Source of the DNA: a virus
Virus record (IMG/VR): IMGVR_UViG_3300019378_001956
DNA: 22,591 nucleotides
Reading direction: 5' to 3' (one strand)
The translations under genes and the position numbers were made by a program. This document shows positions 10,687 to 17,741 of the stretch, piece by piece (positions within the stretch are counted from its first letter, which is position 1; every line of letters begins with the position of its first letter). The notes beneath the pieces were generated by a model, which was not told the DNA's origin, did no database searches, and worked only from the letters and a program-made list of their open reading frames with translations.

Positions 10687-11304
10687 TTACCAGGTCATAC
10701 CATTAGAGTTTCTACCAGATCTTGCATTGAAACTTTTATCTGGTTTGTTGCCTTTTACCAAATCTGGATCTACACTTTGAGATGATGGAGTGTAATTTCT
10801 AGGTAAGTATTTCACTACCACTTCATCTTCAATATTTAAAGTTCCATCATCGTTTAATGGTAATTCTACAGTTGTAGGTTCACCATCCTCATTACTTTCG
10901 TCACCTTCATCTCCTTCAGGATTTGGAGTTGGTTCCTGATCAGCCGGTTCCGGATTTTCTAACTTAGCTAACCTTTCATCAGTTTTAGCCTGATTTTCTT
11001 CTATACTATTTAATTTTTCTAAAATCTCTTTACTAACACTATCAGTTTCCCCAGGAGCAGGTTCACTTTTAGCAACTATTTTATCAAGTAAACGTTCCAT
11101 GAAACTACCACTGAGAGTTACATTATCATCAGTTGGTGTATTATTTTGGCTCATTTTATCAACCTCAGTATCAACATATTTTTTAATAAATTCATCATCA
11201 TTCTCATACACTTCAAAAGTAGCTAACGGATGATAAGGCTTATCAACAATACTAATGCTTGCAGGCGTCCAATCCTGTATATCACGAAAATGTAACCTAC
11301 TCAT
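10687..11304 (-). CDS. Scaffold protein with N-terminal protease-like strand motif
   Basis: 205 aa, highly acidic, coiled-coil (KEILEKLNSIEENQAKTDERLAKLE) and Pro/Glu/Asp low-complexity region; N-terminal SISIVDKP motif; GAGGT RBS and ATGA overlap. Confidence 0.7.
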   Translation of the reverse strand: MSRLHFRDIQDWTPASISIVDKPYHPLATFEVYENDDEFIKKYVDTEVDKMSQNNTPTDDNVTLSGSFMERLLDKIVAKSEPAPGETDSVSKEILEKLNSIEENQAKTDERLAKLENPEPADQEPTPNPEGDEGDESNEDGEPTTVELPLNDDGTLNIEDEVVVKYLPRNYTPSSQSVDPDLVKGNKPDKSFNARSGRNSNGMTW

Positions 11305-11648
11305 TGTATCAAACCTCTATCCATTTCATCGACACTTCTTGTTGGAGCAGCAGCAATACTAAAACCAGTGTACTTACCATCATGAATAGCTTGTTGGATT
11401 TCCTGGTCTAATACATCAATGCTTCCCATTAATGTTCCTTTAGGTAGGATGTTTCCTTGCCATTGCATGGTGTTATCAAGTACGTATAATTCAAGTATTT
11501 TACCCACATTTCTTAGTGTGTGTTGAACGTCTGCGAGTACTCCGTTTCTTGCGATGATTAATGCTGCTTTTCTTATTGTTTCTTCATCCAATACTTCACC
11601 TGCACGGTCGGGTATGCCTGGTATGAGTATTGGACCTTTAACAATCAT
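11301..11648 (-). CDS. Prohead (maturation) serine protease, XkdF/HK97-like
   Basis: 115 aa; VKGPILIPGIPDRAGE, DVQH (His), LPKGT and GKYTGFSI (Ser) motifs match XkdF-type proteases; GGTGA RBS. Confidence 0.85.
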   Translation of the reverse strand: MIVKGPILIPGIPDRAGEVLDEETIRKAALIIARNGVLADVQHTLRNVGKILELYVLDNTMQWQGNILPKGTLMGSIDVLDQEIQQAIHDGKYTGFSIAAAPTRSVDEMDRGLIQ

Positions 11649-11804: not shown

Positions 11805-12012
11805 TTAGAAAATAAAATTAAAAAACAATGCAAAAATTAACATAATTAATCATTAATAATAATTCATAGTATATAATCTTTTAGAGAGCATTTGAAGAGT
11901 AATATCAAAAAAACAAGGTACACATAAGTTATTTACCACAAAATATATAAAAACAAATTCATATAATAAAAAATAGGGGTTGAAAAAATAGTGCCTCAAA
12001 GAGAGTGTTGTA

Positions 12013-12043
12013 TCTTATTATCAAGTACCAGTTGATAATAAGA
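12013..12043. repeat. Perfect 12-bp inverted repeat with 7-nt loop
   Basis: TCTTATTATCAA-gtaccag-TTGATAATAAGA in the divergent intergenic region. Confidence 0.85.
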
Positions 12044-12230
12044 AAAACAACAGAGAACATAAACAGTATACTAGTATGAGTTTATGTACATATATTTAAA
12101 TACTCAAATATTTAAATGTTACCATTTAAACTTAATACTATTTTTATACTATTTATATCTTATTAAATCTTTGATAATACTTATTTTAAAACCTCTAACT
12201 TAAAATAAATTTAAAAAGAGGTGAAAAACC

Positions 12231-12434
12231 ATGATACCAGTAGTATCAAGTAATTTACGAGCAGTGGATTACAATCCATTAAATGGAACATTAACTATTG
12301 CATTCCGCAATGGGAGTGTGTATGAATATTACAATGTTCCACAATATATTTTTGAAGGATTGCTTTCTGCCCCATCAAAAGGCAGATACCACCACAGATA
12401 CATAAAATCTTATCCATACTGTAGGATAAATTAA
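12231..12434 (+). CDS. KTSC domain protein
   Basis: 67 aa; VVSSNLRAVDYNP...LTIAFRNGSVYEYYNVP..IFEGLLSAPSKGRYHHRYIK matches the KTSC consensus; GAGGTGA RBS at 12218-12224. Confidence 0.92.
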   Translation: MIPVVSSNLRAVDYNPLNGTLTIAFRNGSVYEYYNVPQYIFEGLLSAPSKGRYHHRYIKSYPYCRIN

Positions 12435-12451
12435 AACAAAAAAATGTAATT

Positions 12452-12483
12452 AGAAAAGCATTCTAAACTATGAATGTTTTTCT
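12452..12483. terminator. Candidate bidirectional terminator hairpin between convergent genes
   Basis: AGAAAAGCATTC-8 nt-GAATGTTTTTCT (12 bp, one G-U), flanked by T-rich runs on both strands. Confidence 0.55.
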
Positions 12484-12617
12484 TTTTCTATTTTATTTAA
12501 TAATTCTGAAAAATCTAATTCAAATAAATCTTTACCTTCATTATTGTCACAGGCATACAATCCACTGAGGCTTGTAAATTCATGTTCTATTTCTTTTAAT
12601 AAGTTATCAGAAATCAT
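12468..12617 (-). CDS. Small acidic protein, 49 aa (absent from ORF track)
   Basis: MISDNLLKEIEHEFTSLSGLYACDNNEGKDLFELDFSELLNKIEKEKHS*; AAGGAG RBS 6 nt before ATG. Confidence 0.6.
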   Translation of the reverse strand: MISDNLLKEIEHEFTSLSGLYACDNNEGKDLFELDFSELLNKIEKEKHS

Positions 12618-12693
12618 ATTTTTCTCCTTTTTTATTCAATACAATAAAAATTACTTTGTGTGATGGCATTTAAGAATAATCGCCTCAAAAAAA

Positions 12694-13059
12694 TTAAATA
12701 TGTAAGAGATTTCTTAAAAAACTTATTTTATAGTCTTCTACACCTTTAATAATCGGTTTGAATTGAGGATATTCTTCAAGAAAATTTAAAGTATATTGGA
12801 GTTCATATTCATGTGCTTCATTAAGTTTGTTTTCACGCACTAATCTACGAGGGATAATACTTTGTTCTTGATCTAACTCTTCAAACTCTGGATGATTAAA
12901 TGAAGCATACTTTCTAAGAATATTAATATTAGGAATAACTTCTTGGACAATATCCATTAATCCATTTGGAATACCTGAAGGTACATTGATAAATTCTTCC
13001 AATTGATCTTCAGACCAATTTCTTACAAAATCATAATTTGGAATCAAAACTTTACTCAA
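12694..13059 (-). CDS. Putative immunity/antitoxin protein for the MuF-ART toxin
   Basis: 121 aa, acidic, directly downstream of the ART domain; TTG start with GGAGGG RBS; own TATA box. Function is inferred from position only. Confidence 0.55.
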   Translation of the reverse strand: MSKVLIPNYDFVRNWSEDQLEEFINVPSGIPNGLMDIVQEVIPNINILRKYASFNHPEFEELDQEQSIIPRRLVRENKLNEAHEYELQYTLNFLEEYPQFKPIIKGVEDYKISFLRNLLHI

Positions 13060-13104
13060 TAATATCCCTCCATAATTTTATACTATTAGATATGTAATTT
13101 CTAC

Positions 13105-13112
13105 TATATAAA
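13105..13112 (-). promoter_or_regulatory. TATA box (TTTATATA) for the putative immunity gene
   Basis: Consensus archaeal TATA box located just after the MuF-ART stop and 45 nt upstream of the TTG start. Confidence 0.5.
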
Positions 13113-13116
13113 TCTA

Positions 13117-14760
13117 TTATAACAATTCCCAATGCGCAAGATATTCTGATTCCTCTTTAATAAGTTGTAAATCAATATTTTTATCCAACAAAACCTCATA
13201 TTCCCATCTTGTATATGTTACTCCTTCAATATATAATATTTTTGTTCCTTTAGAAATCACAATATAATTTACATAATCCCCATATTCTTCAGGTTTAACA
13301 TTTTCTGAAAGTGATGTTGATAAACAAGCATCAGAGTGATAGATTCCATCTTCAGCACGGTTAGACATAGGTTCTTTTTGTCTTCTAACAACGACCAAAT
13401 CTTCTTCTAAAACTTTGCCTTTTTCAAAAATATCATTTAATATTTTTAATGATTTATCAAAACTCATATAATATTGAGGGTGGTAAAATATTAGTTTTAA
13501 CCATTTAATAGAATATTCTTTCTTTATCTCATTTAATTTAGAATCGTCAATATTAGCTATTTTTCTTAAGTATTCATTCAATATGGAAAATCCCTTACCA
13601 GAATATAATTTAATAAATTTATATTCATCTTTTGTTAATTCATCCTTTGTGATACCATATTTTATTTCAAATGTAGTTCTAGCAGACTTAGTTTCTTCAA
13701 CACCATAAACTGTTTTATCACCTATTTTAACTGCTTTATTTTTATCTTTTTCAAAAGTTTCATGTAAATTATCAAGTTCAAATTTTGTGTAATCTATTTT
13801 TGAATTTTGTTTTTGGGGTTTAATTTTACTGGTTACTTTTTCACTGACGGATTTGATTTTTGATTTGACAGTTTTTACCGGTTTTTTAACAGAATTTGTA
13901 ACTTTATTAATCATATCATTATTATTTTTTGATTTATTTGATTTTTTGGATTTTCTAGTTTGAGTAGTACTTTTCTTACCTGAACCTCTAATGTCGGATG
14001 GGGGTCTGTTACTGTAGCTTAACCAGCATCGGCAATTGGCTACGTTTTCTGCTCCACCGTTTAAATCTCCAGGATACATCATCCTTGCAGGATAAGAACC
14101 ATAAATATCAAATGTTTCATCAATAGGGACAGATTCGATAAATTTAGCTTTATGCCAAACACGTGTACGTTTAGTACGGCCATTATTCCAAGATTTATAT
14201 TGGTATCCATCATAGATTGCTTTTATCCAGCTTAAGTTACATTCGTTAGTATGAAATGAGTCACGAATAATATTTTTTATTCTTTTTTGTGCATGTTCAC
14301 CATATTCGGATTTTAGCTTTTCTGTTAATTCAGCTTCAGAGAGATTACCTAAATTCTTAGTATTTATATAATCTTCAATTTTACCTTGTAAATTAGGTAT
14401 TTCTTCTCGAATACGATTACCTAGAATAAACTGATATCTATTTGATATGTTGGATACTGCTGCTTCAACTGCTTTTTCTGGAATTCCATAGCTAATACGT
14501 TTTGTATCATTTTTTAGGTTAGTGTCAATTATCTTCTCAACATTCCTGTTTACTGTTGATTTTTTTATTGGATCACTAGTTCCAGTTACAGCATCTTCAA
14601 TTACAGCATCGATTATTTTATCTTGAAAAGTAGCTGCTTGACTAGCTGCACGGTTAATATTTTTATACTTGTATTGCAAGTGTATATCATCTTTCAATAC
14701 AAGTACTTCATGTAATCTTTGTGCTTTTAAGGCATATTCTAGTATTTCTCTATTAGTCAT
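13117..14760 (-). CDS. MuF (SPP1 gp7-like) minor head protein fused to C-terminal VIP2-type ADP-ribosyltransferase
   Basis: MuF motifs (RVWH, VPIDETF, MMYPGD, ENVANCRC) to about aa 290; Lys-rich linker; ART motifs LYSGKGFSILNEYLRK, VVVR459, CLS481TS483 and E520-Y-E522-VLL. Confidence 0.88.
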   Translation of the reverse strand: MTNREILEYALKAQRLHEVLVLKDDIHLQYKYKNINRAASQAATFQDKIIDAVIEDAVTGTSDPIKKSTVNRNVEKIIDTNLKNDTKRISYGIPEKAVEAAVSNISNRYQFILGNRIREEIPNLQGKIEDYINTKNLGNLSEAELTEKLKSEYGEHAQKRIKNIIRDSFHTNECNLSWIKAIYDGYQYKSWNNGRTKRTRVWHKAKFIESVPIDETFDIYGSYPARMMYPGDLNGGAENVANCRCWLSYSNRPPSDIRGSGKKSTTQTRKSKKSNKSKNNNDMINKVTNSVKKPVKTVKSKIKSVSEKVTSKIKPQKQNSKIDYTKFELDNLHETFEKDKNKAVKIGDKTVYGVEETKSARTTFEIKYGITKDELTKDEYKFIKLYSGKGFSILNEYLRKIANIDDSKLNEIKKEYSIKWLKLIFYHPQYYMSFDKSLKILNDIFEKGKVLEEDLVVVRRQKEPMSNRAEDGIYHSDACLSTSLSENVKPEEYGDYVNYIVISKGTKILYIEGVTYTRWEYEVLLDKNIDLQLIKEESEYLAHWELL

Positions 14761-14773
14761 TTATCTATTGTCC

Positions 14774-16222
14774 TTATCTTAGTAAATCTTCATCCTCATC
14801 TTCATCGATTGGTTCTTCTAATGATGGTTCTATTGGATAATCCTCTTCCATACTACTAATGATTGTTTCTAATCTTTCATCAGTGTTCATTGCATCATTA
14901 CCGTAAAGAATATTGTCTAGGCTTTGGTTATTCATGAATCTTGCATTATAGTATTCATCTGTTTCTTCCATGTGTAGTTCAAATGATTCACCGAATCTGT
15001 TAATGAATTCTCCAAGAGTCATTGCACCATTTTGCAAGAGTTTAATCCCTCTTTCGAGCAGATTATCTTCCTCTTCAAAATTACATGGCAAGTATTCAAC
15101 TTTATGATTTTCAGTAGCGTACTCATGCTTGATTATAGTCTTATTTACTAAGTTTGCAATTCTTTTCTGCAAAATACCTACAGTTGACTTACTATAATTC
15201 TTAAGTAACATTTCAGTTCTATTGGAAGCAATACCTGTAGAATCACTATCACCTAATCTTTCACGTGGCACACGATGAATTCTTCTTATACGATCTCCAA
15301 TAGATTCTGATAATTCAAGGAAACTACCTTCTTTTTTCTCCTCACCAATTTTATGAACATTAATCTCTACAGGCTTATCTTCAGTTGTTGGCATTGTTAA
15401 TACTAAAGCAGTTCCTGGTTCATTAGTAACATCTTTGAATTCTTTTTCCAAGTCCGATTCAAAATCATCAGCAGTATAATCATCACTTTCTTCAAGATTA
15501 CCGGATATGGTTATGATATAATTGGGTACTCCATGAGTTCTGAAATGTGATAATTGATATTCAACAATTGCATTATCAGTCATTATTGCATCAACTTCTG
15601 AGAGATAGGATGGTTTACCATAAACTTTAGATTCGGAGGATTTGGTATTGAACCAGATAATCTCATTGGCCATTGTTTCAGGAGTAATATCTTCATTAAA
15701 GTTTCCTGTTTTTTTATTCAGGAAATCATTATTAGTTGGATCATATAATTTGAAATATGTGGTGACATTACTGATTTTGTTTACAACTCGTTTTTTGTCT
15801 TTGCACATTCTTAGGTATAGGCTGCTAATGTGGTTGATGATTTTGAAGTCTTTTCCTTCACGTAGTATTTCCAATCCAGCATAACCAAATGTTTCTAAAT
15901 CTTCTAAGAATGCTTCTGTTTCTTCATCGAAGTTGAAATCATATATGAAGTCTTCTAATTCTTGAGGTATTTCTACTCCTTCTTTGCTTATGATTTTTTT
16001 ACCGCTGAATATTGCATCTTCACATTTTGTTCTGATACATATATCATGTAATCCTGATACGTCTCTTAGTTTATCTAATCTGAATGGGTCGAATGGTGGG
16101 TCGATTACTTCATTTCCATATTGTAAATCATCTTTGCTTAGTTCTTGACTTTTTATTTCATATTCATTTAGTACACTTTTGATTACAGCTTGTTTTAAAA
16201 ATTGATTTGATATTACTTTCAT
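14774..16222 (-). CDS. Portal protein
   Basis: Follows TerL; KVYGKPSYLS, FRTHGVPNYIITISG and IRRIHRVPRERLG motifs of HK97/PBSX-type portals; start moved from 16285 to the ATG at 16222, which has a GGTGA RBS (482 aa). Confidence 0.92.
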   Translation of the reverse strand: MKVISNQFLKQAVIKSVLNEYEIKSQELSKDDLQYGNEVIDPPFDPFRLDKLRDVSGLHDICIRTKCEDAIFSGKKIISKEGVEIPQELEDFIYDFNFDEETEAFLEDLETFGYAGLEILREGKDFKIINHISSLYLRMCKDKKRVVNKISNVTTYFKLYDPTNNDFLNKKTGNFNEDITPETMANEIIWFNTKSSESKVYGKPSYLSEVDAIMTDNAIVEYQLSHFRTHGVPNYIITISGNLEESDDYTADDFESDLEKEFKDVTNEPGTALVLTMPTTEDKPVEINVHKIGEEKKEGSFLELSESIGDRIRRIHRVPRERLGDSDSTGIASNRTEMLLKNYSKSTVGILQKRIANLVNKTIIKHEYATENHKVEYLPCNFEEEDNLLERGIKLLQNGAMTLGEFINRFGESFELHMEETDEYYNARFMNNQSLDNILYGNDAMNTDERLETIISSMEEDYPIEPSLEEPIDEDEDEDLLR

Positions 16223-16391
16223 TATGTCACCTTCACTATATACTTTGACAAAATAGAAAAGAATTATTCGTTTACTTTTGAACAAACATATATTATTTCT
16301 ATATGAATATTGAACACGAAAATTAAAAACACGGGGTTTTATATTTTTGAGTTGAACAAATAAATTATAAATACCTAAAAATATTAAACAA

Positions 16392-17741
16392 TCATCGGCT
16401 TTTTCTTTTTCTTAACACAGTACCTCTCTTCTGAGGATACAAACCTTCATGCAATAAAGTCACACTATCAACACGATCATTATGAGTAGACTCATCATTA
16501 ACAACAATATTCTCAGAAGGAAACTTGACAGCTTGCTTTTTAAATTCTTTTAACCATTTACCTTTAACAAATAATATTTTACCAGTTTTAATACCACGTA
16601 CCGCACGTGAAGCACGCATTATCTTAGACTTAGGTACAGGAATAAAAGTAGGATTATATTCTTTGAATTCATTTTGCCAGTAATTCTTAACTATTTTACC
16701 AGCTGCTGCAGGTTGTTTTTCAATCCAATTATCATACTCACTATTAACTTCCATTATTCTACTCATGTAAGTTTCCAGTTTTCCAGGCCTTTTTTGTGTA
16801 CTTTTTTGGTCATGAATCATTCCAATTTTACCTTTAAAAACAGTACTGAAAGAACCTACAGTATAATCCGCAGTTTTAGATTCAGTAGCTGCAATATCCC
16901 ATGTGATAACCTGTTGGAGTATTTCCCATTCAGTTAAATATTCATCGTATTCTTGTTTGGATATTGTTGCATCATCTATTAAGTCATAATCAAATATGTC
17001 TCCTGCTGTTACTTCATAATCCCAATTACCTATCTGGTATTGATAATCTGCTTTACTTAATTCCTGTAATGATTCCAAATAATCTTCCCTATCAATATAA
17101 GGATTATCCCAGAAGTTCATTTCAAAAAAAGGATATGGGCCTTCAACAAATCTTTCTTTAAGATAAGTGGATCCGTCTGCATCTGCAGGGTTACTGATAT
17201 AATATAGACTTAATGGAAATTTCATTAAACCTTTAGTTCCACGTAGACTTCTGTTTAGGAATTGTAAGTTAACTTTAAAGAATTCACTTGCTTCATCTAC
17301 AATTATGCGATGGTAAGCACGGCTTTTGAATTTCTCTTTATCTTTTTCTAAAAGCATGTATGAATAGTATATTTTAGCATTAGTATCATGATTGATAAAA
17401 CAACGTTTAGATTGGTTATGCTCCACATTTGGGAATTCTTTTGTCCACTCATCGATATAATCAACAATTCCTCCTGTTGCTATAACATTATCATAGGTGG
17501 ATCTTAGTATTAAGCACCTGTAGTTTTTTGCTTTGAAGTGTTGTAATGCTAATACTGCACCCAGTATACTTTTTCCACTGTATGCTGAACCGCCAATAAG
17601 TTTTCTTTTGTGCTTGTCACATATAGCGTAAAGTTGTTTTGCATAGGGTTTGATTGGTATGAATGGATTATTTGCTATACTATCTTGTATTATTTGCCAA
17701 TCTTCACTTGTTAATGATAGTTTAGTATAGTCTACTTTCAT
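16392..17741 (-). CDS. terL: Terminase large subunit
   Basis: Walker A GGSAYSGKS, Walker B IIVDEASE, motif ISNPA, nuclease WDIA and HNDRVDS. Confidence 0.95.
   Translation of the reverse strand: MKVDYTKLSLTSEDWQIIQDSIANNPFIPIKPYAKQLYAICDKHKRKLIGGSAYSGKSILGAVLALQHFKAKNYRCLILRSTYDNVIATGGIVDYIDEWTKEFPNVEHNQSKRCFINHDTNAKIYYSYMLLEKDKEKFKSRAYHRIIVDEASEFFKVNLQFLNRSLRGTKGLMKFPLSLYYISNPADADGSTYLKERFVEGPYPFFEMNFWDNPYIDREDYLESLQELSKADYQYQIGNWDYEVTAGDIFDYDLIDDATISKQEYDEYLTEWEILQQVITWDIAATESKTADYTVGSFSTVFKGKIGMIHDQKSTQKRPGKLETYMSRIMEVNSEYDNWIEKQPAAAGKIVKNYWQNEFKEYNPTFIPVPKSKIMRASRAVRGIKTGKILFVKGKWLKEFKKQAVKFPSENIVVNDESTHNDRVDSVTLLHEGLYPQKRGTVLRKRKSR

Follow-up and report, generated by a model that had tools for sequence, protein, structure and literature searches.

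The window analysed here, a 22,591-nucleotide stretch of viral DNA (IMG/VR record IMGVR_UViG_3300019378_001956), carries in its head module a gene of 547 amino acids (aa; 13117-14760, minus strand, as given by the listing of open reading frames, ORFs). Its product joins a MuF-like head-morphogenesis half to an ADP-ribosyltransferase (ART) domain, and a gene for a small acidic protein of 121 aa lies directly downstream. We consider it probable that the two proteins form a MuF polymorphic toxin, or effector, with its cognate inhibitor. Systems of this kind are already known from bacterial prophages; what is notable here is the archaeal host, the new inhibitor family and an explanation for ORF35, a gene expressed in lysogens of Methanobrevibacter smithii tailed virus 1 (MSTV1). 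A preliminary description, made from the letters of the window, had proposed this MuF-ART polymorphic-toxin reading, and in-silico checks of the fold, the swapped domains, the small-ORF linkage and the predicted binding all came out as it predicted.

Results

The ADP-ribosyltransferase domain

Residues 341-547 of the protein (13120-13740, minus strand) were assigned to the C3/VIP2-type ARTs by Pfam, by a sequence profile of the Protein Data Bank (PDB) and by Foldseek. Over aa 367-533 the protein matches the Pfam family PF03496 (ADPrib_exo_Tox) with E=7.7e-10 and 38.9 bits, the cut-off being 23.4, and the family is likewise matched by 31/31 of the homologues in our alignment A1, which holds 31 full-length sequences. 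R459, the Arg of the R-S-E triad (codon at 13384-13386, minus strand), Q461, S485, E520 and E522 are invariant in A1 (31/31), and T482 is kept in 30/31. The codons of S481-T482-S483 (13312-13320, minus strand) correspond to the STS motif and align to the STS of C3larvin, while those of E520-Y-E522 (13195-13203, minus strand) encode the ExE catalytic motif that ends the ARTT loop. When compared with solved structures, the A1 profile retrieved C3larvin (E=3.3e-5), SpvB, Lmo0066, Certhrax and CDTa, and the Arg, the STS, the catalytic Glu and the alpha-3 'Y..G....N..LR' region all stand in register with these structural relatives. The AlphaFold2 model of aa 341-547 is confident (pLDDT 64-95 per 10-residue block, mostly 80-95), with Foldseek matches to Certhrax, C2-I, C3bot, Plx2A, VIP2 and CDTa (E about 1e-7 to 5e-6, prob 1.00). 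Both the fold check that the preliminary description had proposed for this half and its reading of a VIP2/exotoxin-type ART with an intact R-S-E set were borne out, residue by residue. We rejected the reading of the ART as a degraded pseudo-enzyme, as the catalytic residues R459, E520 and E522 are invariant. Judged from its sequence, the domain is a catalytically competent-looking R-S-ExE mono-ADP-ribosyltransferase. In characterised ARTs the ExE motif goes with Arg as the acceptor, and from the motif we infer the same specificity for this one.

In public records, the MSTV1 homologue genes are annotated 'hypothetical protein', and automatic NCBI naming calls two homologues 'ADP-ribosyltransferase'. 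Another relative (vir080_00032 of BK063677, our locus L003, 4065-5561) is annotated 'head maturation protease (phrog_595)'; the gene scores on both Phage_Mu_F (E=4.6e-11) and ADPrib_exo_Tox (E=3.6e-11), and the annotation looks wrong.

Exchange of C-terminal domains

Searching 5.8 billion proteins gave us 177 relatives, of which the 120 listed ones were analysed. Among these matches, identity in the MuF half and identity in the C-terminal 190-207 residues are decoupled. At least 16 proteins combine a MuF half at 87-95% with an ART at 54-61%, P0002 alone having an ART at 90%; at least about 20 have a MuF half at 78-93% and an unrelated C-terminus or none; in others both halves are distant (MuF 39-53%, ART 42-58%). 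Conversely, P0057 has a different, Pfam-positive MuF domain and yet an ART that is 74.5% identical. Clustering of the listed C-termini by BLAST gave at least seven multi-member classes, besides singletons and short forms of ~325 aa. Profile-profile comparison placed classes 0, 2 and 3 in one ART superfamily (probabilities 96%, 95% and 55%) and merged classes 4 and 5 (94%); classes 1 and 6 are unrelated to all others. The MuF halves of the relatives carry, then, at least four unrelated C-terminal groups. Classes 1, 4, 5 and 6 match no family in Pfam, NCBIfam or PADLOC. The preliminary description had suggested a look for swapped C-terminal domains in related MuF genes, and different ones are indeed what these genes carry. 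Within the sizes that the search covered, ART relatives with at least 43% identity are fusions to a MuF-type head domain, and at least three MuF lineages are represented; the only exceptions are two shorter ORFs with at most a remnant of the MuF end.

The closest relative of the window with a different C-terminus is the locus L004. Its nucleotide identity to the window stays at 91-100% as far as about codon 255 and is 18-56% from there on, which puts the junction right behind the conserved NCRCWLSY..NRPPS block, at the start of the linker that follows the MuF-like half. The terminase large subunit (TerL) of L004 is 99% identical, its portal 98%, its MuF half 93% and its linker 49% (45/80 aa), while the ART and the small ORF are replaced; the locus ends before the protease and major capsid protein (MCP) genes. 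In L013, TerL (94%), portal (88%), MuF (90%), protease (92%) and MCP (87%) are close to those of the window, and linker (63%), ART (56%) and small ORF (55%) less so. L008 has an ART at 75% and a small ORF at 86%, with a portal at 24%, a MuF half at 35% over 69 aa, and no match for TerL, linker, protease or MCP. An XkdF-type prohead protease gene (11301-11648, minus strand; Pfam Peptidase_S78_2, E=3e-13) marks the downstream limit of the variable cassette; its product keeps 91-97% identity in relatives that have a replaced or diverged C-terminal domain and small ORF. The GC content falls to 25-26% over 12001-14000, which covers the ART and the small ORF, against mostly 30-35% in the flanks, and this dip fits a horizontal acquisition of the cassette. 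All these comparisons indicate that linker, C-terminal domain and small gene are a recombination cassette exchanged among viruses.

The 121-aa protein and its linkage to the ART

The candidate cognate inhibitor (immunity protein) is encoded at 12694-13059 on the minus strand, with a TTG start. The preliminary description had pointed to a small acidic ORF directly downstream of the ART, and the gene answers to it, with a product of 121 aa and pI 4.83 and a start 57 nt after the ART stop codon. We surveyed its linkage with three hidden Markov models (HMMs), for MuF, ART and the small family, in 64 loci from phage records, metagenomes, IMG/VR and GTDB genomes. The 121-aa family lies directly downstream in 10/10 ART-class loci that have downstream sequence (7 distinct, with at least four MuF lineages) and in only 2 of ~50 other loci, both of the remote ART class 3. 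Small-ORF identity tracks ART identity closely (Pearson 0.97, Spearman 0.90; 21 pairs of 7 distinct loci) and MuF-half identity hardly (r=0.28, same 21 pairs); these pairs are not independent and p-values mean little, but the contrast of 0.97 with 0.28 is plain. The small ORFs of other classes belong to other families: one is common to classes 1, 4 and 5, another occurs in class 6 and another in class 2. The members behind classes 1, 4 and 5 (L006, L004 and L005) are homologous, with a common H.LEQ..D..GN..SE.IK motif, despite the lack of profile similarity between the C-terminal domain of class 1 and those of classes 4 and 5.

The model of the 121-aa protein is confident (pLDDT 91, pTM 0.81) and describes a compact helical domain closed by two terminal strands. 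No family was found for it in Pfam, PHROGs, NCBIfam or PADLOC, and no match below E=0.5 with a PDB sequence profile. Structure searches returned nothing below E=2 with Foldseek against PDB and BFVD, a best Z of 3.6 with VIA-align over 48,161 chains, which is background for a helical protein, and a best TM of 0.41 in a shape search of the ESM Atlas. The fold matches none known, although such searches do not make it new. Residue R49 is invariant in 15/15 members of the family. A 394-aa metagenomic protein (P0138) matches residues 19-59 of the 121-aa protein in five stretches, and may consist of repeats derived from the N-terminal part of this family.

Predicted complex of the ART and the 121-aa protein

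As the preliminary description had proposed, the complex of the ART (aa 341-547) and the 121-aa protein was predicted, with an own alignment for each chain and three controls. The pair reached an ipSAE of 0.85, with values of 0.84-0.86 in three runs, whereas the best of the three controls scored 0.09. The runs agree in at least 91% of contacts, with 84-89 contacts and a partner pLDDT of at least 89. The mark set by the tool is reached by 58/80 solved complexes and 2/110 mismatched pairs, proportions that hold only roughly here because own alignments were used. The tool is unlikely to have passed the pair by reproducing a known structure, since no solved protein looks like the partner. Such a score speaks for binding between the 121-aa protein and the ART without demonstrating it.

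Confident contacts on the ART involve residues 358-373, 384-392, 419-431, 488-492 and 512-519. By alignment to C3-like enzymes, 384-392 correspond to the alpha-3 region, 488-492 to the PN loop after the STS, and 512-519 to the ARTT loop ending in E520. It is with the alpha-3 region, the PN loop and the ARTT loop that C3 and iota-type enzymes recognise their substrate. The invariant R49 of the small protein touches ART residue 518, two residues before E520. The small protein is thus predicted to sit as a lid over the substrate-recognition face of the ART, next to the NAD+ cleft.

The MuF-like half and the linker

The head-morphogenesis half spans aa 1-260 (13981-14760, minus strand), was recognised by PHROG and pairwise matches, and ends in a conserved block, ...PGDLNGGAENVANCRCWLSY. 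The NCRC stands at aa 242, the segment ...ENVANCRCWL comprises aa 238-247, and the alignment of homologues has invariant columns from W202 to L247. PHROG 13287 matches this half with E=1e-78, and so do two 'head morphogenesis' PHROGs (phrog_2468, E=2e-16; phrog_3517, E=1.4e-9). A tblastn search found the 'MuF-like minor capsid protein' of Microbacterium phage Jayden (E=9e-7). Residues 185-253, with the NCRC, align to residues 221-279 of P0057 (pairwise E=2e-8), whose Pfam MuF match covers 163-276. The helical N-terminal part (aa 31-185) is modelled by AlphaFold2 with a pLDDT of about 80-89 that drops to about 70 near aa 180.

Behind this half follows, as the preliminary description had it, a Lys-rich linker (aa 261-340; 13741-13980, minus strand; 27.5% Lys, pI 10.2). 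It is mostly disordered, with pLDDT below 35 over aa 254-333 except for a predicted helix at 283-311 (AlphaFold2). Short MuF forms of ~313-330 aa end soon after the NCRCWL block (L045-L051, L019, L040, L011 and L035), and most of them have no small ORF within 200 nt downstream.

Transcription signals and expression in lysogens

The 57-nt spacer between the ART and the small gene (13060-13116, minus strand) is a candidate own promoter of the latter. It holds a TATA-like box, TTTATATA, just after the ART stop codon (13105-13112, minus strand) and a GGAGGG ribosome-binding site (RBS; 13066-13071, minus strand) 6 nt upstream of the TTG start. A T7 run directly after the stop codon of the small gene (12687-12693, minus strand) is a candidate terminator, as oligo-T runs terminate archaeal transcription. 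These features recur in the ART-class loci: the spacer measures 53-78 nt in 7/7, a TATA-like box right after the ART stop is found in 6/7, a GGAGG-type RBS in 6/7, and a T5-T10 run within 25 nt after the small-ORF stop in 7/7. The small ORFs of other C-terminal classes mostly overlap or closely abut the upstream gene. On the strength of these signals (TATA-like box, RBS and oligo-T run), the small gene appears to be its own transcription unit, and as such its product would be made in lysogens.

The cultured relative MSTV1 offers a way to look at this. Its ORF35 is reported to be highly expressed in lysogens in which the structural genes are silent; the authors, who could recognise no domain in the protein, proposed that it serves to exclude superinfecting viruses or to silence the defences of the host (PMC11375127). 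The main text of that paper mentions no ART or MuF (PMC11375127). Ordinal mapping of the GenBank coding sequences makes ORF35 the protein XCD08686 (108 aa), which is 59% identical to the 121-aa protein, and makes ORF34 the MuF-ART protein. The numbering was checked at ORF1 (integrase), ORF4 (HEPN), ORF5-8, which match, and ORF26 (CxxC...CxxxC zinc finger). A shift by one would give the minor capsid protein or the protease, both with recognisable domains, so the identification of ORF35 with the homologue of the 121-aa protein is well supported. A faecal metatranscriptome (X23) yielded a single 232-nt contig, 100% identical to 12829-13060 and wholly inside the small ORF, which is a weak hint of its expression, since contigs cannot show expression level and the parts left uncovered prove nothing. 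A second run labelled 'RNA?' (X24) gave portal pieces and was uninformative, and two DNA runs (X9 and X14) contributed no more than short pieces of relatives.

Occurrence outside virions

Of 251 Methanobacteriaceae genomes searched with a profile, 38 have the small family, several of them in multiple copies. We examined 40 chromosomal regions, which amount to 48 copies: 15/48 lie directly behind an ORF that matches the ART profile, 2/48 in tandem behind another family member, 18/48 behind an unrelated gene and 4/48 at a contig edge, while 9/48 have no upstream ORF within 250 nt. Many of the ART-profile ORFs are ART-only (91-246 aa) and some are split into two ORFs; an intact stand-alone ART of 198 aa keeps the R, the STS and the ExE. 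Window-type head genes were found within 3.5 kb in only 3 of the regions examined. Stand-alone pairs of ART and small gene, away from head genes, imply that the pairing belongs to the ART domain and not to capsid assembly.

Some of the unrelated upstream genes could be named by Pfam: they encode a nitroreductase (4 genomes), a DEAD-box helicase, an AAA ATPase and an Ig-like protein. The nitroreductase-family gene (PF00881, 172 aa) is followed after 1 nt by a small-family member of 130-131 aa in four Methanobacteriaceae genomes (L065, L073, L074 and L076), with no ART or head genes nearby; this copy may be a domesticated orphan or have an ART-independent role. In another region (L089; G011:C1:1467900-1476200, minus strand), an ART split into ORFs of 94 and 123 aa precedes three tandem small genes (116, 134 and 145 aa), and that genome has 8 copies of the family in all. 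The array resembles the orphan toxin-fragment and immunity arrays of bacterial CDI and Rhs loci.

The virus and its head module

The ORFs of the window lie almost all on the minus strand and form a tailed-virus late region. The head module runs in the order TerL (16392-17741, minus strand; Pfam Terminase_6C and Terminase_6N), portal (14774-16285, minus strand; Pfam Phage_portal, E=1.6e-11; phrog_12 portal), the 547-aa gene, protease, a scaffold-like ORF and MCP, with the 121-aa ORF on the 3' side of the 547-aa gene. The portal gene directly precedes the start of the 547-aa gene at 14760, an order that is kept in all related loci. Among phage records, the best match of the 547-aa protein is to MSTV1 (PP537965; 43.7% identity over the full length), and two more Methanobacteriales viruses match it. 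In a set of archaeal and bacterial genomes with one genome per species, 8/9 relatives lie in Methanobrevibacter or Methanobacteriaceae assemblies, and M. woesei and Methanobacteriaceae are the sources of those small-ORF family members that carry a name. Going by these relatives, viruses and proviruses of Methanobrevibacter, and by the TerL, portal, protease and MCP neighbours, the window appears to be a Methanobrevibacter tailed virus of the MSTV1 type, and the preliminary description was correct in calling this an archaeal (methanogen) virus head module. There is no integrase within the window. An identical 547-aa protein occurs on contigs of up to 118 kb, homologues lie in Methanobacteriaceae chromosomes, and MSTV1 is a temperate provirus; going by such relatives rather than by the window itself, a temperate lifestyle is likely.

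The interval between the small ORF and the protease (12125-12617) holds a 49-aa ORF on the minus strand and a 67-aa gene on the plus strand. The latter encodes a KTSC domain (PF13619, E=5e-24) and is the only clear plus-strand gene of the window. Relatives carry quite different genes at this site, for example ORFs of 170 aa and 315 aa in L006 and L009, and the head module seems to have a second site of variable insertion here.

Discussion

How might such a pair of proteins act? In the model that we favour, a few copies of the MuF-ART protein would be built into the head beside the portal, where the MuF-like half would tie the protein to the portal and the capsid interior. By analogy with MuF/gp7 proteins and T4 Alt, it would then enter the next host cell together with the DNA, and the injected ART would ADP-ribosylate a host macromolecule, most likely on Arg. 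When the small acidic protein is present, it would bind the substrate face of the ART and block the enzyme. Transcription of the small gene on its own in lysogens would have two consequences: i) protection from incoming virions and ii) protection from leaky ART. Finally, recombination behind the NCRCWLSY block would swap linker, effector and inhibitor as one unit.

Several points weigh against this model, or limit it. Packaging, injection, activity, inhibition, toxicity and Arg specificity are, for this particular protein, what we infer. The preliminary description had spoken of a MuF domain ending in ...ENVANCRCWL; its position and its homology to PHROGs and to P0057 stand, but the case is weaker than was implied, as the 547-aa protein gives no match to Pfam Phage_Mu_F (PF04233) at E<0.1 and its relatives score 15-20 bits against a cut-off of 29.6. 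The label 'MuF' therefore rests on remote homology, and the MuF core itself (aa 190-250) is modelled by AlphaFold2 with a pLDDT below 50. Within the ART, S481 is Ala in 9/31 and Pro in 1/31 of the homologues, so that some members of the family may differ in activity. The TATA-like box occurs 5 times in the whole window against 4.4 expected and is not enriched, which leaves its conserved position as the evidence that counts. The correspondence of ORF35 to the 121-aa protein goes by ordinal position, and the locus pairs behind the correlation of small ORF with ART are, as said, non-independent. About 27/48 chromosomal copies of the small family have no recognisable ART neighbour; these may be orphan immunity genes or could point to an ART-independent role, and, the ART profile being narrow, some of the 'orphans' may have diverged ART neighbours. 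Lastly, Alt-like phage ARTs are modulators and not killers, so 'toxin' may overstate the effect.

This last point leads to the rival that survives best, in which the ART is a non-lethal effector of host takeover or anti-defence that the virus needs on entry. The small protein made in lysogens would then bring about superinfection exclusion, by disarming the ARTs that related viruses carry in, and would not serve to protect its producer against a toxin. For ORF35, the authors of MSTV1 had exclusion or a silencing of defence in mind (PMC11375127); T4 Alt, the best-known packaged ART, reprograms RNA polymerase with no killing (PMC9503650); and Jamet et al. considered that MuF toxins of the ART type are perhaps moderately toxic and guide the lysis-lysogeny decision (PMC5576092). 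Orphan chromosomal small genes would also fit a host defence against injected effectors. On the other hand, the stand-alone pairs of ART and small gene look more like toxin-antitoxin pairs, in which the partner protects the producer, and the fast diversification into unrelated C-termini with matched partners is a signature of toxin and immunity. We regard this alternative as possible but rather doubtful as a full account; the two readings are not mutually exclusive.

It seems improbable to us that the ART is not delivered by the virion at all, and instead acts late in the producing cell, like T4 ModA and ModB, or on viral proteins, with the small protein timing its activity. The gene is transcribed with the late genes, and we found no virion proteomics in the MSTV1 paper. 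Nevertheless, the ART relatives at 43% identity or more are fused to MuF-type domains of at least three lineages, and if packaging were of no importance, it would be difficult to see why ARTs should have been joined several times independently to a protein inside the head that associates with the portal. Surveys of phage MuF-ART fusions in the literature come to the same view on packaging (PMC5576092, PMC9503650).

A slightly poorer case can be made for the 121-aa protein as a chaperone or stabiliser that assists assembly or packaging of the ART-bearing head protein and inhibits nothing. The location of the small gene inside the head module and the predicted binding to the ART would suit this role, and a dedicated chaperone would also co-vary with its client. 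Yet the MSTV1 homologue is highly expressed in lysogens while the head genes are silent, the small gene has promoter-like and terminator-like signals of its own, and the family also occurs beside stand-alone ARTs and as orphans, far from head genes. In addition, a partner placed on the ARTT and PN loops, as predicted, is better suited to inhibit the enzyme than to help it fold, and we think this role quite unlikely. Least likely of all, the small protein might be a substrate or switch of the ART, ADP-ribosylated for instance on Arg49, rather than a simple blocker: R49 is invariant, lies in the predicted interface and touches residue 518, and ExE ARTs usually modify Arg, but an interface as extensive as the one predicted (84-89 contacts) is inhibitor-like rather than that of a transient enzyme-substrate encounter.

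The toxin-inhibitor model has its closest counterparts in temperate bacteriophages, where MuF proteins with a C-terminal toxin and a downstream small ORF have been described and ARTs make up 14% of the toxins (Jamet et al. 2017, PMC5576092). As in the window, the MuF gene of those systems follows the portal gene, the C-terminal toxin is variable, and a small ORF of less than 150 aa lies directly downstream. Short MuF forms that lack both toxin domain and small ORF provide the same contrast there as among the relatives of the window, and the context is a temperate virus or provirus, as it is for MSTV1 among the relatives of the window. There are also differences. The host here is archaeal (Methanobrevibacter), whereas that survey covered bacteriophage and bacterial proteomes and archaea go unmentioned; the MuF half of the window is too diverged for Pfam; the small partner belongs to a new family that matches no known fold; and it apparently has its own promoter and, to judge from its homologue, is expressed in lysogens. 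According to that paper, a studied MuF1-ART fusion is the EFV toxin of the Enterococcus faecalis V583 prophage (cited in PMC5576092). This toxin, which we liken to the window protein by its published description, comes from a bacterial prophage and has no known partner of the 121-aa family. SPP1 gp7 and Mu gpF, too, are encoded after the portal gene and have the conserved C-terminal MuF motif; gp7 is cited as portal-bound, with 1-2 copies per capsid (cited in PMC5576092). Unlike the window protein, gp7 carries no toxin domain, and the homology between the two is remote, below the Pfam threshold.

Many ARTs of the Alt/VIP2 family are fused to MuF (Iyer et al., PMC9503650). T4 Alt resembles what we propose in being an ART of the Alt/VIP2 group that is carried in the head, delivered with the DNA and modifies host proteins on Arg (PMC9503650). 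It differs in being a separate internal head protein with no MuF fusion, encoded by a virulent phage with no inhibitor gene after alt; and injection, shown for Alt, would apply to the window protein by analogy. The fold and the order of motifs (alpha-3 'YxxxGxxxxNxxLR', Arg, STS, and ARTT loop with the catalytic Glu) are common to the window ART and to C3bot, C3larvin, Plx2A, Certhrax, VIP2, C2-I, CDTa and SpvB. Identity to these C3-like and binary toxins is 13-20%, with an ExE as in VIP2, iota and Certhrax and not the QxE of C3. In contrast to them, the window protein has no secretion signal or cell-binding component; the virion would deliver it, and the archaeal cell that receives it has none of the eukaryotic targets of those toxins.

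Neutralisation of an ART by a directly downstream-encoded protein is found among the effector-immunity pairs of bacterial secretion systems, in Tre1-Tri1 and in the Listeria Lmo0066 ART-ARH pair, where ARH stands for ADP-ribosylhydrolase. Tri1 is an immunity enzyme of the ARH fold. The ART chain of the Listeria pair (PDB 8za7) is among the structural matches of the window ART, and its immunity protein has, by the PDB title, an ARH fold. The 121-aa protein is unlike both immunity proteins, being small and helical, with no ARH or macro similarity, and predicted to act by occlusion only. Orphan copies and arrays, such as those of the small family, are also a feature of bacterial polymorphic-toxin loci. 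No description of a MuF-toxin and inhibitor arrangement in archaeal viruses was found in the searchable literature, outside which an earlier mention is possible, and a full-text search for ADP-ribosyltransferase or ADP-ribosyl with Methanobrevibacter returned no paper.

In the guts of humans and ruminants, methane is produced mainly by Methanobrevibacter, and the viral manipulation of this archaeon is barely understood. The findings carry the idea of phage MuF polymorphic toxins over to archaeal viruses, and they provide MSTV1, the only cultured M. smithii virus, with the hypothesis that ORF35 is the antidote to the ART domain of ORF34. The small protein defines a candidate family of ART inhibitors without known fold, the ART is a handle for finding targets of ADP-ribosylation in archaea, and the small genes that stand as orphans or in arrays on host chromosomes hint that hosts may defend themselves against effectors injected by viruses. 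More tentatively, and with more doubt than trust on our side, each MSTV1-type virus might inject one of several interchangeable effectors that spare only the cells with the matching inhibitor, in a virion-delivered, strain-specific warfare. If so, the spared cells would be lysogens or hosts with captured orphan copies or arrays of the inhibitor, and the 121-aa family would serve viruses as an immunity gene and, in domesticated form, archaea as a defence against viruses. The ART would then act on a core archaeal machine for which control by ADP-ribosylation has not been known before.

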